From assembly GCF_988242995.1 (NCBI RefSeq), contig NZ_OZ547043.1: 64,000 nt of DNA; one strand, written 5' to 3'. This document shows positions 849 to 31,323 of this stretch, in pieces. Position numbers and translations under genes: made by a program. The notes below the pieces were generated by a model. That model saw only the letters and a program-made list of their open reading frames with translations. It was not told where the DNA came from and did not search any database. The first letter of the stretch is position 1. Each line of letters opens with the position of its first letter.

Positions 849-3800
849 TTGAGCCAGGAATACACTGAAGACAAAGAAGTCACATTGACAAAGTTAAGTA
901 GCGGCCGCCGCCTTCTGGAGGCGTTGCTGATCCTTATTGTCCTGTTTGCCGTCTGGTTGATGGCTGCCTTACTAAGCTTTAACCCTTCGGACCCCAGCTG
1001 GTCGCAAACGGCCTGGCATGAACCTATCCATAATTTAGGTGGGATGCCCGGTGCGTGGCTGGCAGATACGCTGTTCTTTATTTTTGGCGTGATGGCTTAC
1101 ACCATTCCCGTCATTATTGTCGGCGGTTGTTGGTTTGCCTGGCGTCATCAGTCCAGCGACGAATACATTGATTATTTTGCCGTTTCGCTACGCATCATTG
1201 GCGTTTTGGCGCTCATCCTTACCTCCTGTGGTCTGGCGGCAATCAACGCTGACGATATCTGGTATTTTGCCTCCGGTGGCGTCATTGGCAGCTTACTAAG
1301 CACTACGCTACAACCACTGCTACACAGTAGCGGGGGAACTATTGCGCTGCTCTGCGTTTGGGCTGCGGGTCTGACGCTGTTCACCGGTTGGTCATGGGTG
1401 ACCATTGCTGAAAAACTCGGCGGCTGGATTTTAAACATTCTCACCTTCGCCAGTAATCGTACACGTCGCGATGATACCTGGGTCGATGAAGATGAGTATG
1501 AAGATGACGAAGAGTATGAAGATGAAAATCACGGCAAACAGCATGAATCACGCCGTGCCCGTATTCTTCGCGGCGCGCTAGCGCGTCGTAAACGGTTGGC
1601 GGAAAAATTCATTAATCCGATGGGGCGGCAAACAGATGCTGCGTTGTTCTCCGGTAAGCGGATGGATGATGAAGAAGAGATTACCTACACTGCACGCGGT
1701 GTGGCTGCCGACCCTGACGACGTCCTCTTTTCGGGCAATCGTGCAACGCAGCCAGAATATGACGAGTACGATCCATTATTAAACGGTGCGCCAATTACCG
1801 AACCTGTTGCTGTAGCAGCTGCTGCTACCACGGCGACGCAAAGCAGGGCTGCACCGGTTGAACCTGTGACTCAGACGCCACCTGTTGCCTCTGTTGATGT
1901 TGCACCTGCACAACCTACAGTAGCCTGGCAGCCTGTACCGGGGCCACAAACGGGAGAGCCGGTGATTGCTCCGGCACCGGAAGGTTACCCACAGCAGCCA
2001 CAATATGCGCAGCCTGCAGTGCAATATAATGAGCCGCTGCAACAACCTGTACAGCCACAGCAGCCGTATTATGCGCCTGCGGCGGAACAACCTGTTCAGC
2101 AACCGTATTACGCAACTGCGCCGGAACAGTCTGCGCAACAGTCGTATTACGCCCCTGCGCCGGAACAGTCTGCGCAACAGCCGTATTACGCCCCTGCGCC
2201 AGAACAATCGGTGGCAGGTAACGCCTGGCAAGCCGAAGAGCAGCAATCCACTTTTGCTCCACAGTCTACATACCAGACTGAGCAAACTTATCAGCAGCCA
2301 GTCGCTCAGGAGCCGTTGTACCAACAGCCGCAACCTGTTGAACAGCAGCCTGTTGTGGAGCCTGAACCCGTTGTAGAAGAGACAAAACCCGCGCGTCCGC
2401 CGCTTTACTACTTTGAAGAAGTGGAAGAGAAGCGAGCCCGTGAACGTGAACAACTTGCGGTCTGGTATCAACCGATTCCAGAACCGGTTAAAGAACCAGA
2501 ACCGATCAAATCTTCGCTGAAAGCACCTTCTGTTGCAGCAGTACCTCCAGTAGAAGCCGCTGCCGCTGTTTCTCCGCTGGCATCTGGCGTGAAAAAAGCG
2601 ACACTGGCGACGGGGGCTGCCGCAACCGTTGCCGCGCCAGTCTTCAGTCTGGCAAATAGCGGTGGACCGCGTCCGCAGGTCAAAGAGGGGATTGGCCCGC
2701 AGTTGCCACGACCGAAACGTATCCGCGTGCCAACTCGTCGTGAACTGGCGTCTTACGGTATTAAGCTGCCCTCACAGCGTGCGGCAGAAGAAAAAGCCCG
2801 TGAAGCCCAGCGTAATCAGTACGATTCTGGCGATCAGTACAACGATGATGAAATCGATGCGATGCAGCAGGATGAACTGGCACGTCAGTTCGCCCAGACA
2901 CAGCAGCAACGCTATGGCGAACAGTATCAACATGATGTGCCCGTGAACGCAGAAGATGCAGATGCTGCGGCAGAGGCTGAACTGGCTCGTCAGTTTGCGC
3001 AAACTCAACAACAACGTTATTCCGGCGAACAACCGGCTGGGGCGAATCCGTTCTCGCTGGATGATTTTGAATTTTCGCCAATGAAAGCGTTGCTGGATGA
3101 TGGTCCACACGAACCGTTGTTTACGCCAATTGTTGAACCTGTACAGCAGCCGCAACAACCGGTTGCACCGCAGCAGCAGTATCAGCAGCCACAACAGCAG
3201 GTTGCGCCGCAGCCGCAGTATCAGCAGCCGCAACAGCCGGTTGCACCGCAGCAGCAATATCAGCAGCCACAACAACCGGTTGCACCGCAGCCGCAATATC
3301 AGCAGCCGCAACAGCCGGTTGCACCACAGCCGCAATATCAGCAGCCGCAACAGCCAGTTGCGCCGCAGCCGCATGATACCCTGCTTCATCCGCTGTTGAT
3401 GCGCAATGGTGACAGCCGTCCGTTGCATAAACCGACGACGCCGCTGCCTTCTCTGGATTTGCTGACGCCGCCGCCGAGCGAAGTGGAGCCGGTAGATACC
3501 TTTGCGCTTGAACAAATGGCGCGCCTGGTGGAAGCGCGTCTGGCTGATTTCCGTATTAAAGCCGATGTCGTCAATTATTCTCCGGGGCCGGTTATCACTC
3601 GCTTTGAATTGAACCTGGCACCGGGAGTAAAAGCGGCGCGTATTTCTAACTTGTCACGTGACCTTGCCCGTTCACTTTCGACGGTGGCGGTGCGTGTCGT
3701 TGAAGTTATTCCTGGCAAACCCTATGTAGGTCTGGAGTTACCGAATAAAAAACGACAAACCGTTTATCTGCGCGAAGTTTTGGATAACGCCAAATTCCGC

Positions 3801-8423: not shown

Positions 8424-8444
8424 TACCCAATTTTTCTGAATCTA

Positions 8445-8469
8445 AAAAGCGCCTGCGGGCGCTTTTTTT
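8445..8469 (+). terminator. Rho-independent terminator of serS
   Basis: aaaaagcgcctgcgggcgcttttttt: GC stem agcgcc/ggcgct with a T7 run, directly after the serS stop. Confidence 0.65.
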
Positions 8470-9180
8470 GTGCACAGAAAACCCCCAGCTAGGCTGGGGG
8501 TTCCGGAAAGCTTTCAGCTTTGAGCCAGTTATTAAAACCCCTTTTGATTTGTTAAAACACCTTGCGGTCTGGCAACTGCAAGTGTCAAACAAGAAATCAA
8601 AAGGGGGTCCCAATGGGGGACGAAAAGAGCTTAGCGCACACCCGCTGGAACTGTAAATATCACATAGTTTTTGCGCCGAAATACCGAAGACTGGCGTTTT
8701 ACGGAGAGAAGCGTAGGGCGATAGGCAGTATTTTGAGAAAGCTGTGTGAGTGGAAAAGCGTACGGATTCTGGAAGCAGAGTGCTGCGCAGATCATATCCA
8801 TATGCTTGTGGAAATCCCACCCAAAATGAGCGTATCCGGCTTTATGGGATATCTGAAAGGGAAAAGCAGTCTGATGCTTTACGAGCAGTTTGGGGATTTG
8901 AAATTCAAATACAGAAACAGGGAGTTCTGGTGCCGAGGGTACTATGTCGATACGGTGGGTAAGAACACGGCGAAGATACGTGACTACATAAAGCACCAGC
9001 TTGAAGAGGATAAAATGGGGGAGCAGTTATCGATTCCATATCCGGGCAGCCCGTTTACGGGCCGTAAGTAACGAAGTTGAATGCAAATGTCAGATCGTAT
9101 GCGCCTGTTAGGGCGCGGCTGGTAACAGAGCCTTACAGGCGCATTTGAAAAACCTCCGGCTATGCCGGAGGATATTTATT
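8467..9180 (+). mobile_element. IS200 insertion sequence, copy 1 (IS200/IS605 family, ~714 bp)
   Basis: Identical to the second copy at 13344..14057 over ~714 bp (both boundaries offset by 4877 bp); encodes IS200 TnpA; left-end hairpin aacccccag/ctgggggtt at 8480..8502 and right-end hairpins including cctccggc/gccggagg. Ends are inferred from where the two copies' flanks diverge, so +/- a few bp. Confidence 0.85.
8613..9071 (+). CDS. tnpA: IS200 transposase TnpA (Y1/HUH transposase, 152 aa)
   Basis: MGDEKSLAHTRWNCKYHIVFAPKYRR...HIHMLVEIPPKMSVS...YYVDTVGKN is the IS200 TnpA sequence with the HuH motif and catalytic Tyr; start taken at the internal Met of ORF 8562..9071. Confidence 0.9.
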   Translation: MGDEKSLAHTRWNCKYHIVFAPKYRRLAFYGEKRRAIGSILRKLCEWKSVRILEAECCADHIHMLVEIPPKMSVSGFMGYLKGKSSLMLYEQFGDLKFKYRNREFWCRGYYVDTVGKNTAKIRDYIKHQLEEDKMGEQLSIPYPGSPFTGRK

Positions 9181-9188
9181 GTCTCCCT

Positions 9189-9202
9189 TTGATACCGAAC
9201 AA
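9189..9202 (+). promoter_or_regulatory. Candidate FNR box of the dmsA promoter (TTGATaccgAACAA)
   Basis: Near match to the FNR consensus TTGAT-N4-ATCAA about 170 bp upstream of the dmsA start; dmsABC is known to be FNR-activated. Assignment is from memory, not verified. Confidence 0.4.
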
Positions 9203-9372
9203 TAATTACTCCTCACTTACACGTAATACTACTTTCGAGTGAAAATCTACCTATCTCTTTGATTTTCAAATTATTCGATGTATACAAGCCTATATAGCGA
9301 CCTGCTATAGAAATAATTACACAATACGGTTTGTTACTGGAATCAATCGTGAGCAAGCTTGAGTGAGCCATT

Positions 9373-12446: not shown

Positions 12447-13310
12447 ATGGGAAGTGGATGGCATGAATGGCCGCTGATGATCTTCACGGTCTTCGGGCAA
12501 TGTGTAGCGGGTGGTTTTATCGTTCTGGCTTTGGCGCTGCTCAAAGGCGACCTGCGAGCAGAAGCCCAGCAGCGTGTTATTGCCTGCATGTTTGGTTTAT
12601 GGGTGCTGATGGGCATTGGCTTTATCGCCTCTATGCTTCATCTTGGTTCACCGATGCGCGCCTTTAACTCGCTCAACCGGGTAGGGGCTTCAGCACTCAG
12701 TAACGAAATCGCCAGCGGTTCGATCTTTTTTGCTGTTGGTGGCATCGGCTGGTTACTGGCAATGCTGAAAAAGCTGTCACCGGCATTGCGTACGCTGTGG
12801 CTGGTGGTGACGATGGTTCTTGGCGTCATCTTTGTCTGGATGATGGTGCGTGTCTATAACAGCATCGATACCGTACCCACCTGGTACAGCATCTGGACAC
12901 CGATGGGCTTCTTCCTGACGATGTTCATGGGCGGCCCGTTACTGGGTTACCTGTTGCTGAGTCTGGCTGGCGTCGATGGCTGGGCGATGCGTCTGCTGCC
13001 AGCCATTTCTGTACTGGCACTGGTAGTGAGTGGCGTGATGTCAGTGATGCAGGGCGCAGAGCTGGCGACTATTCATAGTTCTGTGCAGCAGGCCGCAGCG
13101 CTGGTGCCGGACTATGGTGCGCTGATGTCCTGGCGGATCGTGCTTTTGGCTGTTGCCCTGTGTTTGTGGATTGCACCACAGCTAAAAGGTTATCAGCCTG
13201 CGGTTCCGCTACTATCCGTCTCATTCATTTTGCTTCTGGCAGGAGAATTAATCGGCCGCGGCGTATTCTATGGTTTGCATATGACCGTGGGGATGGCCGT
13301 CGCAAGCTAA
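12447..13310 (+). CDS. dmsC: DMSO reductase membrane anchor subunit DmsC
   Basis: MGSGWHEWPLMIFTVFGQCVAGGFIVLALALL within ORF 12384..13310; start chosen at the Met following an aggagg RBS, 1 bp after the dmsB stop. Confidence 0.9.
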   Translation: MGSGWHEWPLMIFTVFGQCVAGGFIVLALALLKGDLRAEAQQRVIACMFGLWVLMGIGFIASMLHLGSPMRAFNSLNRVGASALSNEIASGSIFFAVGGIGWLLAMLKKLSPALRTLWLVVTMVLGVIFVWMMVRVYNSIDTVPTWYSIWTPMGFFLTMFMGGPLLGYLLLSLAGVDGWAMRLLPAISVLALVVSGVMSVMQGAELATIHSSVQQAAALVPDYGALMSWRIVLLAVALCLWIAPQLKGYQPAVPLLSVSFILLLAGELIGRGVFYGLHMTVGMAVAS

Positions 13311-13318
13311 TCAGTAAC

Positions 13319-13346
13319 AACCGGGGTTTCGACCCCGGTTCTCTTT
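13319..13346. terminator. Hairpin after dmsC (aaccgggg...ccccggtt), probably the native bidirectional dmsC/ycaC terminator
   Basis: Perfect 8-bp GC-rich stem with a T-rich tail ctcttt; lies between the dmsC stop and the left end of IS200 copy 2. Confidence 0.5.
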
Positions 13347-14057
13347 GTGCACAGAAAACCCCCAGCTAGGCTGGGGGTTCCGGAAAGCTTTCAGCTTTGA
13401 GCCAGTTATTAAAACCCCTTTTGATTTGTTAAAACACCTTGCGGTCTGGCAACTGCAAGTGTCAAACAAGAAATCAAAAGGGGGTCCCAATGGGGGACGA
13501 AAAGAGCTTAGCGCACACCCGCTGGAACTGTAAATATCACATAGTTTTTGCGCCGAAATACCGAAGACTGGCGTTTTACGGAGAGAAGCGTAGGGCGATA
13601 GGCAGTATTTTGAGAAAGCTGTGTGAGTGGAAAAGCGTACGGATTCTGGAAGCAGAGTGCTGCGCAGATCATATCCATATGCTTGTGGAAATCCCACCCA
13701 AAATGAGCGTATCCGGCTTTATGGGATATCTGAAAGGGAAAAGCAGTCTGATGCTTTACGAGCAGTTTGGGGATTTGAAATTCAAATACAGAAACAGGGA
13801 GTTCTGGTGCCGAGGGTACTATGTCGATACGGTGGGTAAGAACACGGCGAAGATACGTGACTACATAAAGCACCAGCTTGAAGAGGATAAAATGGGGGAG
13901 CAGTTATCGATTCCATATCCGGGCAGCCCGTTTACGGGCCGTAAGTAACGAAGTTGAATGCAAATGTCAGATCGTATGCGCCTGTTAGGGCGCGGCTGGT
14001 AACAGAGCCTTACAGGCGCATTTGAAAAACCTCCGGCTATGCCGGAGGATATTTATT
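13344..14057 (+). mobile_element. IS200 insertion sequence, copy 2 (same orientation as copy 1)
   Basis: Identical to 8467..9180 judging by identical six-frame ORFs and visible sequence; flanks differ on both sides. Right end abuts the ycaC stop codon. Confidence 0.85.
13490..13948 (+). CDS. tnpA: IS200 transposase TnpA (second copy)
   Basis: Translation identical to the TnpA at 8613..9071. Confidence 0.9.
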   Translation: MGDEKSLAHTRWNCKYHIVFAPKYRRLAFYGEKRRAIGSILRKLCEWKSVRILEAECCADHIHMLVEIPPKMSVSGFMGYLKGKSSLMLYEQFGDLKFKYRNREFWCRGYYVDTVGKNTAKIRDYIKHQLEEDKMGEQLSIPYPGSPFTGRK

Positions 14058-14683
14058 TATTTCTGCTTCGTTAATGTGTCATAACTGGTCATCAAATTAC
14101 GATAATCAGGAATGTGGTTAGAGAACAACGTCGCCAGTCCTTCAATATCATTACGCCAGTCACGGTGCAGCTCGCACGCCACGCCGAACCATGTCATCAA
14201 TTGCGCACCAGCTTGCGACATGCGATCCCATGCCGAATGCCGGGTAATTTCATTAAAGGTCCCTGACGCGTCAGTCACGACAAATACATCAAACCCTTCT
14301 TCAATGGCTGAAAGCGCCGGGAATGCCACGCAAACTTCGGTTACCACACCGGCAATAATTAACTGTTTTTTACCTGTCGCTTTGACAGCTTTTACAAAAT
14401 CTTCGTTATCCCAGGCGTTAATATTTCCCGGGCGAGCAATGTAAGGTGCATCGGGAAACTGTGCTTTCAGTTCTGGAACTAATGGGCCGTTAGGACCGGT
14501 TTCAAAACTGGTGGTAAGAATAGTAGGTAAGTTGAAATACTTAGCCAGGTCGCCCAGCGCCAGCACGTTATTTTTAAACTTATCGGGTTCGATATCCCGT
14601 ACAAGGGAAAGTAAACCAGCCTGGTGATCAACAAGCAAAACGGCAGCATCATTTTTATCAAGACGAACATACGGTTTGGTCAT
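14057..14683 (-). CDS. ycaC: Isochorismatase-family hydrolase YcaC
   Basis: ORF 14057..14683 (-), 208 aa, MTKPYVRLDKNDAAVLLVDHQAGLLSLVRD with the cysteine-hydrolase fold signature. Confidence 0.9.
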   Translation of the reverse strand: MTKPYVRLDKNDAAVLLVDHQAGLLSLVRDIEPDKFKNNVLALGDLAKYFNLPTILTTSFETGPNGPLVPELKAQFPDAPYIARPGNINAWDNEDFVKAVKATGKKQLIIAGVVTEVCVAFPALSAIEEGFDVFVVTDASGTFNEITRHSAWDRMSQAGAQLMTWFGVACELHRDWRNDIEGLATLFSNHIPDYRNLMTSYDTLTKQK

Positions 14684-29649: not shown

Positions 29650-31323
29650 ATGACTGAATCTTTTGCTCAACTCTTTGAAGAGTCCTTAAAAGAAATCGAA
29701 ACCCGCCCGGGTTCTATCGTTCGTGGCGTTGTTGTTGCTATCGACAAAGACGTAGTACTGGTTGACGCTGGTCTGAAATCTGAGTCCGCCATCCCGGCTG
29801 AGCAGTTCAAAAACGCCCAGGGCGAGCTGGAAATCCAGGTAGGTGACGAAGTTGACGTTGCTCTGGACGCAGTAGAAGACGGCTTCGGTGAAACTCTGCT
29901 GTCCCGTGAGAAAGCTAAACGTCACGAAGCCTGGATCACGCTGGAAAAAGCTTACGAAGATGCTGAAACTGTTACCGGTGTTATCAACGGCAAAGTTAAG
30001 GGCGGCTTCACTGTTGAGCTGAACGGTATTCGTGCGTTCCTGCCAGGTTCTCTGGTAGACGTTCGTCCGGTGCGTGACACTCTGCACCTGGAAGGCAAAG
30101 AGCTTGAATTCAAAGTAATCAAGCTGGATCAGAAGCGCAACAACGTTGTTGTTTCTCGTCGTGCCGTTATCGAATCCGAAAACAGCGCAGAGCGCGATCA
30201 GCTGCTGGAAAACCTGCAGGAAGGCATGGAAGTTAAAGGTATCGTTAAGAACCTCACTGACTACGGTGCATTCGTTGATCTGGGCGGCGTTGACGGCCTG
30301 CTGCACATCACTGACATGGCCTGGAAACGCGTTAAGCATCCGAGCGAAATCGTCAACGTTGGCGACGAAATCACTGTTAAAGTGCTGAAGTTCGACCGCG
30401 AACGTACCCGTGTATCCCTGGGCCTGAAACAGCTGGGCGAAGATCCGTGGGTAGCTATCGCTAAACGTTATCCGGAAGGTACCAAACTGACTGGTCGCGT
30501 GACCAACCTGACCGACTACGGCTGCTTCGTTGAAATCGAAGAAGGCGTTGAAGGCTTGGTACACGTTTCCGAAATGGATTGGACCAACAAAAACATCCAC
30601 CCGTCCAAAGTTGTTAACGTTGGCGATGTAGTGGAAGTTATGGTTCTGGATATCGACGAAGAACGTCGTCGTATCTCCCTGGGTCTGAAACAGTGCAAAG
30701 CTAACCCGTGGCAGCAGTTCGCGGAAACCCACAACAAGGGTGACCGTGTTGAAGGTAAAATCAAGTCTATCACTGACTTCGGTATCTTCATCGGCCTGGA
30801 CGGCGGCATCGACGGCCTGGTTCACCTGTCTGACATCTCCTGGAACGTTGCAGGCGAAGAAGCAGTTCGTGAATACAAAAAAGGCGACGAAATCGCTGCA
30901 GTTGTTCTGCAGGTTGACGCAGAACGTGAACGTATCTCCCTGGGCGTTAAACAGCTCGCAGAAGATCCGTTCAACAACTGGGTTGCTCTGAACAAGAAAG
31001 GCGCTATCGTAACCGGTAAAGTAACTGCAGTTGACGCTAAAGGCGCAACCGTAGAACTGGCTGACGGCGTTGAAGGTTACCTGCGTGCTTCTGAAGCATC
31101 CCGTGACCGCGTTGAAGACGCTACCCTGGTTCTGAGCGTTGGCGACGAAGTTGAAGCTAAATTCACCGGCGTTGATCGTAAAAACCGCGCAATCAGCCTG
31201 TCTGTTCGTGCGAAAGACGAAGCTGACGAGAAAGATGCAATCGCAACTGTTAACAAACAGGAAGATGCAAACTTCTCCAACAACGCAATGGCTGAAGCTT
31301 TCAAAGCAGCTAAAGGCGAGTAA
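29650..31323 (+). CDS. rpsA: 30S ribosomal protein S1
   Basis: ORF 29650..31323, 557 aa, [34 protein letters not shown] and repeated S1 domains. Confidence 0.97.

Follow-up and report, generated by a model that had tools for sequence, protein, structure and literature searches.

Group IIC introns home to positions 3′ of intrinsic terminator hairpins and do little harm to their hosts; they depend on a ribozyme and a reverse transcriptase, as opposed to the Y1 single-strand DNA transposase of the insertion sequence (IS) IS200. In elements of the IS608 type, pairing between a guide and the cleavage site is known, with TTAC serving as the target of IS608 and TTGAT as that of ISDra2. The structure closest to the one considered here belongs to IS200 itself. 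Two papers describe its left-end hairpin as a bidirectional Rho-independent terminator at which about 85% of impinging transcripts end (PMC4513863, PMC5435999), and state that this terminator protects IS200 from outside transcription (Beuzon et al. 1999, as cited in PMC4513863 and PMC5435999). The present analysis concerns the other end of an IS200 copy (copy 2) that lies between dmsC and the convergent gene ycaC in a window of 64,000 nucleotides (nt) from contig NZ_OZ547043.1 (NCBI RefSeq assembly GCF_988242995.1). The locus probably represents an ordinary IS200 insertion at the dmsC terminator, with a right end that likely acts as terminator for ycaC and with terminator-like hairpins on either side of the element. 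IS200 is known and acts here as its family does; the new point, a modest one, is that its right end, like the left, is terminator-like and would replace the minus-strand function of the bidirectional terminators that IS200 targets.

The right-end hairpin shares with the left-end hairpin of the same element a near-identical design (GAAAA followed by CCNCCNGC-TNN-GCNGGNGG) and a terminator-like appearance on both strands. The two differ in that termination has been measured (about 85%) at the left end, and in that the right end faces the opposite flank. The bidirectional terminators of convergent genes offer a further parallel, as they also have, a few nt past a stop codon, a GC hairpin set between an A-rich and a T-rich stretch and can be read on both strands; the right end of IS200, in contrast, is mobile and constrained by transposition, and its plus-strand tail (AUAUUUAUU) is weak.

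Copy 2 (13344–14057) and a second copy in the window, copy 1 (8467–9180), are 100% identical over 714 nt and diverge from 14058 and 9181, respectively. The shared sequence ends at 14057, the first plus-strand base of the ycaC stop codon ("tta" at 14057–14059), as an earlier note on this DNA had claimed. Empty dmsC–ycaC sites in a K-12-like and an O157 strain read ...ccccggttctcTTTTatttctgc..., and comparison with the K-12-like junction, which that note had proposed, reveals a 711-nt insert in a run of four T: the empty TTTT becomes TTT-IS-T, and target duplication is absent. Taken alone, this site fits three registers (13345–14055, 13346–14056 and 13347–14057) since the IS closes with TT and is itself preceded by a T-run. 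Conservation of the ends was assessed in a family set built from one genome per species, with at least 80 loci from Enterobacterales, Vibrio and many Firmicutes; Salmonella and Yersinia chromosomes lay outside this set, and the Yersinia copy came from a plasmid search. Elements start with G in 45 of 61 cases followed by T in 44 of 61, and end in TT (61 and 63 of 67 at the two terminal positions), while the flanks are variable, which favours the register 13347–14057. Insertion in that register would fall between bases 2 and 3 of the ycaC TAA, with the last T of the IS regenerating the stop. In every register the boundary, as placed by the empty sites, lies at most 2 nt from the ycaC stop codon, close to the gene end as had been supposed and not at a distance from it. 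The same junctions occur at the occupied site of EC21Z-151, where tnpA is annotated at the identical site in RefSeq. The query was matched in 5424 of 5426 complete E. coli genomes, and an occupied dmsC–ycaC site, defined as a match covering at least 80% of the query, was present in only 18 of these.

Judged from its sequence, copy 2 is an ordinary insertion of the IS200/IS605 family, IS200 group, because it combines a Y1_Tnp match with an STnc490 region and lacks target duplication. The STnc490/art200 region reaches the same Rfam score, 146.4 bits, in each of the two copies. The sole open reading frame (ORF) of copy 2, tnpA, is intact and identical in copy 1. The ends of the element (GTGCAC... 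and ...TATTTATT) form no terminal inverted repeats, and a subterminal hairpin is found at each; the positions given in the earlier note for the left-end hairpin (8480–8502 in copy 1 and 13357–13379 in copy 2) were confirmed by folding. Family membership alone would point to single-strand "peel and paste" transposition.

Read on the minus strand, in the direction of ycaC transcription, the right end consists of CCTCCGGCAUAGCCGGAGG followed by UUUUUCAAAU, a hairpin of 8 base pairs (bp), 7 of them GC, with a 3-nt loop and U5 directly after it. The corresponding RNA on the ycaC side reads UAA-AUAAAUAU-(CCUCCGGC AUA GCCGGAGG)-UUUUUCAAAU, with the hairpin, set here in parentheses, beginning 8 nt past the ycaC stop. 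Its RNA fold has an energy of −15.5 kcal/mol (z = −3.4), and none of 200 shuffled sequences folds as well. Both the earlier description of the minus-strand right end as a hairpin followed by ttttt and the folding proposed as a check upon it are thereby borne out. In the ycaC direction the right end passes the terminator scan and obtains a terminator score, computed by a d'Aubenton-Carafa-type heuristic (of the 1990 type) combined with ViennaRNA energies, of +26.5; the left end read on the minus strand, which is the art200 side of the published bidirectional terminator, scores +27.5. On the plus strand, at the 3′ end of tnpA, the right end passed a simple scan with the tail ATATTTATTT and scored −8.5. 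Among the family members in the matches listed, 61 of 67 have five or more T in the 8-nt window taken as the minus-strand tail. These features suggest that the right-end hairpin most likely ends the majority of ycaC transcripts and limits antisense transcription through tnpA.

Published hints of termination at the right end concern the sense direction. A 102-nt sense cDNA, StyR-24, starts 4 nt past the tnpA ORF (PMC2943607), and by arithmetic from the reported start and length it would end at about the right end of IS200; a preprint remarks that native IS200 has a "weaker transcription terminator". For the antisense direction none was found in the literature search, whose coverage did not extend to the original IS200 papers. 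The 3′ end of Ysr202, a Yersinia small RNA (sRNA) in Rfam, was also tried as evidence on the right end, as it matches the minus strand at 14025–14058 (28.5 bits, E = 7e-6). It was ruled out: the right end of Yersinia pestis IS1541A (L087) is not the Ysr202 hairpin and is identical to that of the E. coli element, and the match probably reflects generic terminator resemblance.

The right-end hairpin also has a reading as DNA. An alignment of 67 elements (57 distinct right-end sequences, related to one another) gives the consensus GAAAAA-CCNCCNGC-TNN-GCNGGNGG-ATNTTTATT, with GAAAAA conserved 5′ of the stem in most of the 67. Across the 57 distinct sequences, 99.8% of cells in the 8-bp stem are paired, and three of its eight pairs together show 55 double-sided changes; the covariation spans phyla, and the observed score was reached by none of 500 shuffles. 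Position 14027, the third base 5′ of the stem, varies together, in Watson-Crick fashion, with position 14053, the fifth from the IS end (A:T 43, G:C 8, C:G 3; positions 12 and 38 of alignment A2), although kinship among the sequences weakens this covariation statistic. As single-stranded DNA the right end folds at −10 kcal/mol. The covariation of 14027 with 14053 suggests guide and cleavage-site pairing of the IS608 kind in IS200. IS608 and ISDra2 resemble IS200 in several respects, including the absence of inverted repeats and of target duplication, insertion 3′ of a short sequence, and a hairpin at each end, and in IS200, as guide pairing predicts, covariation links a base 5′ of the hairpin foot to one in the 3′ tail. 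They differ in that IS200 targets a T-run (TTTTT) beside a terminator hairpin and has no tnpB. By analogy with the family, for which this role is established, the hairpin and A-run would be primarily DNA signals for the transposase, and the terminator-like quality of the right end may be a by-product of these signals.

The choice of target accounts for where the element lies. Across the loci of the family set, a GC hairpin and a T-run stand before the left end in nearly every case. For 63 distinct target sites from Enterobacterales, Vibrio and Firmicutes, a hairpin plus T window was sought by the same criteria as in the terminator scan. Under strict criteria the left end abuts such a terminator at 48 of the 63 sites, compared with 0.85% of random positions (21 of 2480); most of the apparent negatives have a hairpin interrupted by a mismatch or bulge, or a left end that the script mis-located. 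The flanking consensus from −5 to −1 is TTTTT (T in 56, 55, 44, 55 and 54 of 61 sites). Four E. coli sites fit the rule, lying after serS, dmsC, a tRNA-Gly/Cys/Leu cluster and aroA, as does the copy on the Y. pestis plasmid pFra, which follows ggccactatatttagtggccTTTTTT. The T-tract of dmsC overlaps the ycaC stop because the two genes converge, and the position of the element at that stop is, on these data, a by-product. The boundary given in the earlier note was correct. Its placement at the ycaC stop is an outcome of how the IS200 group targets terminator T-runs, and nothing peculiar to ycaC.

A statistical enrichment of terminator-like sequences on the upstream side of IS elements, strongest for IS200/IS605, has been reported and read as limiting transposase expression (bioRxiv 10.1101/2025.07.22.666184). 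The target preference described above suggests that this enrichment arises at least partly from target choice; survival bias may contribute. A literature search for accounts of terminator targeting by IS200 gave only this preprint on terminator enrichment, with a review of the IS200 family falling outside its coverage. An arrangement in which flanking genes point toward the element (->IS<-) has been reported as over-represented for IS200 (PMC9208149). Among the matches listed here, a minus-strand frame of at least 100 codons has its stop within 150 nt of the right end at 36 of the 57 loci whose flanks were long enough, an uncontrolled count that includes at least one false positive (L005), and at 7 of these 36 the stop codon either overlaps the IS end or is no more than 5 nt away. 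The case of ycaC looks typical for the IS200 family.

A comparable situation occurs at copy 1. The empty serS/dmsA site reads gcgcTTTTTTTgtctccc, and the junction T7|gtctcc was left unchanged on insertion, again without target duplication. At the empty site the Rfam model of the sRNA STnc130 scores 140.1 bits and its terminator helix is the bidirectional serS terminator, from which copy 1 now separates it. At the occupied site the model aligns the right-end hairpin and U5 of copy 1 as the terminator helix. STnc130 would thus be a second case in which IS200 supplies a stand-in terminator, and an independent sign that the right end is terminator-like. The same serS–dmsA site is occupied in E. 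coli S1-CAM-04-C (L005) by a different IS200 variant, IS200C, which is 95.8% identical to copy 1. Its insertion point is the identical nucleotide and its orientation agrees, suggesting independent insertions into one target.

At the dmsC–ycaC site the native hairpin (aaccggggtttcgaccccggtt, 13319–13340) begins 9 nt past the dmsC stop codon (13308–13310). In empty sites it adjoins ycaC, lying 5 nt past the ycaC stop with an A-rich AAAAGAG upstream, and it is now separated from that gene by the whole of IS200, as had been noted. The terminator scan finds it terminator-like on the plus strand, the dmsC direction, only. In the ycaC direction its U-tract is poor and its score ranges from −0.4 to −29 (window and K-12-like sequences). 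Insertion left the dmsC terminator with the shorter tail CTCTTTGTGCACAGA in place of CTCTTTTATTTCTGC, and in the dmsC direction its score falls from +10.3 at the empty site to +2.2 at the occupied one. The left-end terminator of IS200 lies 16 nt downstream and may serve as a back-up.

Several points weigh against the proposal that the right end terminates ycaC transcripts. The heuristic score is negative (−7 to −41) for the left end on the plus strand despite the reported termination of about 85% of impinging transcripts in that direction; given this value at a known terminator, the score is conservative. The U-tract of copy 2 consists of five U followed by CAAAU and is shorter than those of the best terminators, and 31 of 67 relatives, GAAGAA and GAAATA variants among them, have an uninterrupted T run of fewer than five after the hairpin, so that a strong U-tract is not strictly maintained. 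Termination of ycaC RNA at 14024–14029 is itself a prediction. Moreover, because the covariation of the stem and of 14027/14053 is explained by transposition, this process is, as far as the alignment goes, a full explanation for the conservation of hairpin and A-run, which gives no independent support for a role in RNA. Much of this would be expected if the right-end hairpin were a DNA recognition structure for TnpA and nothing else, with ycaC RNA ending elsewhere through Rho, processing or read-through to the left-end hairpin. The family-wide stem covariation, the guide-like covariation, the stable DNA hairpin and the interrupted T-runs of many relatives all agree with such a purely DNA-based role, and the literature consulted names only the left end as a terminator against impinging transcription. 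It is nonetheless judged unlikely, since an 8-bp stem with seven GC pairs and U5 directly after it has the standard features of an intrinsic terminator, its minus-strand score matches that of the left-end hairpin, and the published support for termination at the tnpA 3′ end comes from the sense direction, in which the tail is weaker than on the minus strand.

A different objection concerns the word substitute. The earlier note called the native dmsC/ycaC hairpin bidirectional, which holds in the dmsC direction but is doubtful in the ycaC direction, where weak U-tract and low score coincide; its view of the right end as a terminator for ycaC is plausible and in part supported, by the scan match and the score of +26.5, while the supposed substitution may be a gain. 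If the native hairpin were a one-way dmsC terminator, nothing would have been substituted, and the insertion would have given ycaC a terminator and weakened that of dmsC. The plus-strand-only scan result, the ycaC-direction scores in both sequences and the loss of tail and score on the dmsC side are consistent with this account, which is possible if somewhat doubtful: the hairpin lies just past the ycaC stop in empty sites with an A-rich stretch upstream, and the shared hairpins of convergent genes often terminate in both directions despite imperfect U-tracts. It is far less probable that the insertion was retained for a benefit to expression of ycaC or dmsABC, the IS end being domesticated as a host terminator. 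The preserved ycaC stop and the near-equal distance of the new hairpin from it (8 nt vs. 5 nt) could be cited in favor, but the rarity of the occupied site (18/5426 complete genomes), a tnpA that is intact and identical in both copies, a position fully predicted by the target rule of the family, and the same geometry at unrelated sites make domestication very hard to credit.

The preferred reading therefore remains that of an ordinary insertion whose right end likely terminates ycaC. On this reading the Y1 transposase would insert IS200 on the 3′ side of a T-run, which in this family nearly always belongs to an intrinsic terminator. The target in the present case would be the dmsC terminator, whose T-tract overlaps the ycaC stop. 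The left end would come to abut the dmsC hairpin and the right end the preserved ycaC stop. Transcription of the A-run, GC hairpin and T-rich tail on the minus strand would then yield a GC-rich 8-bp hairpin followed by UUUUU, and together with the known terminator of the left end, terminator-like hairpins would flank the element in both reading directions. A broader and decidedly tentative extension is that IS200-group elements are self-compensating insertions, which home to terminator T-tracts and bring a replacement terminator with their right end. As parts of the same joint proposal, and no firmer than it, the convergent gene or sRNA might keep a terminator at about the same distance, with the element sealed on both strands, and the A-run guide might read the T-run beside the hairpin.

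The coordinates of the features are collected in Table 1.

Table 1. Positions in the window of the two IS200 copies, their parts and the adjoining genes and RNAs.
Feature	Position	Strand	Remarks
IS200 copy 1	8470..9180	+	Adjoins the T7 run that closes the serS terminator (8444-8469); right-end hairpin 9153-9171
STnc130 sRNA	9140..9282	-	100.9 bits; terminator helix from copy 1 right-end hairpin and U5
dmsC	12447..13310	+	ORF; start adopted from 864-nt annotation in related genomes
Native dmsC terminator	13319..13346	+	Hairpin 13319-13340 and leftover T-tract (ctcttt); insertion target, now cut off from ycaC
IS200 copy 2	13347..14057	+	711 bp; register from family-wide GT start and TTATT end
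Left-end hairpin	13357..13379	.	Arms AACCCCCAGC-TAG-GCTGGGGGTT; folds; corresponds to the published bidirectional terminator, IS200 nt 12-34
Rfam STnc490 region (RF01405)	13357..13480	+	5′ untranslated region of tnpA, art200 encoded opposite; 146.4 bits (gathering score 56)
tnpA, Y1 (HUH) transposase, 152 amino acids (aa)	13490..13948	+	ORF; Pfam Y1_Tnp 126.7 bits (cut-off 23)
A5 run	14025..14029	.	Precedes the right-end hairpin on its 5′ side; read as U5 on the minus strand; probable "guide" segment for the transposase
Right-end hairpin	14030..14048	.	CCTCCGGC-TAT-GCCGGAGG, 8 bp, 3-nt loop; terminator-like on both strands
Right-end tail	14049..14057	+	ATATTTATT; final T shared with the ycaC stop codon as its third base
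ycaC, isochorismatase-family hydrolase, 208 aa	14057..14683	-	ORF including stop; Pfam Isochorismatase 80.5 bits; annotation of related genomes

A few further observations were made in the window and at related loci. The strain of the window is E. coli-like and falls outside the genome collection, in which the best identity over dmsAB is 99.5%. The annotation of the laboratory strain E. coli ME8067 (L001) lists ycaC as a pseudogene that has an internal stop. Upstream of serS, at 3105–3412, lies a tandem array of at least six copies of a 39-nt (13-codon) unit, 65–93% identical to the reference copy and presumably inside a coding region. At 30361–30954 three 72-nt direct repeats spaced 261 nt apart, with 69–71% identity, look like repeated domains of one gene. 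At locus L012 a sequence resembling the left-end hairpin (cctccccagtcaggctgggggtttt) directly follows the IS right end in the right flank (about 1764–1800), and the left-end hairpin arm of the IS200 at that locus is replaced; it may be a rearranged or nested IS200 remnant.

The effect of the insertion on this locus is small, as ycaC retains its stop and probably gains a good terminator, and the dmsABC terminator loses part of its T-tract but may be backed up 16 nt downstream by the left-end terminator of IS200. The window exhibits the same behavior twice, at ycaC and at STnc130, where IS200 has landed on bidirectional terminators and placed its own terminator-like end there. If termination at the right end holds true, IS200 would be insulated at both ends, and gene 3′ ends that adjoin IS200 copies could be annotated by rule. 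The reported excess of terminators upstream of IS200/IS605 could then be read mechanistically, as an effect of target choice rather than of selection alone. Self-compensation, if true, would help to explain the long persistence of IS200 at low harm and its frequent location between convergent genes.

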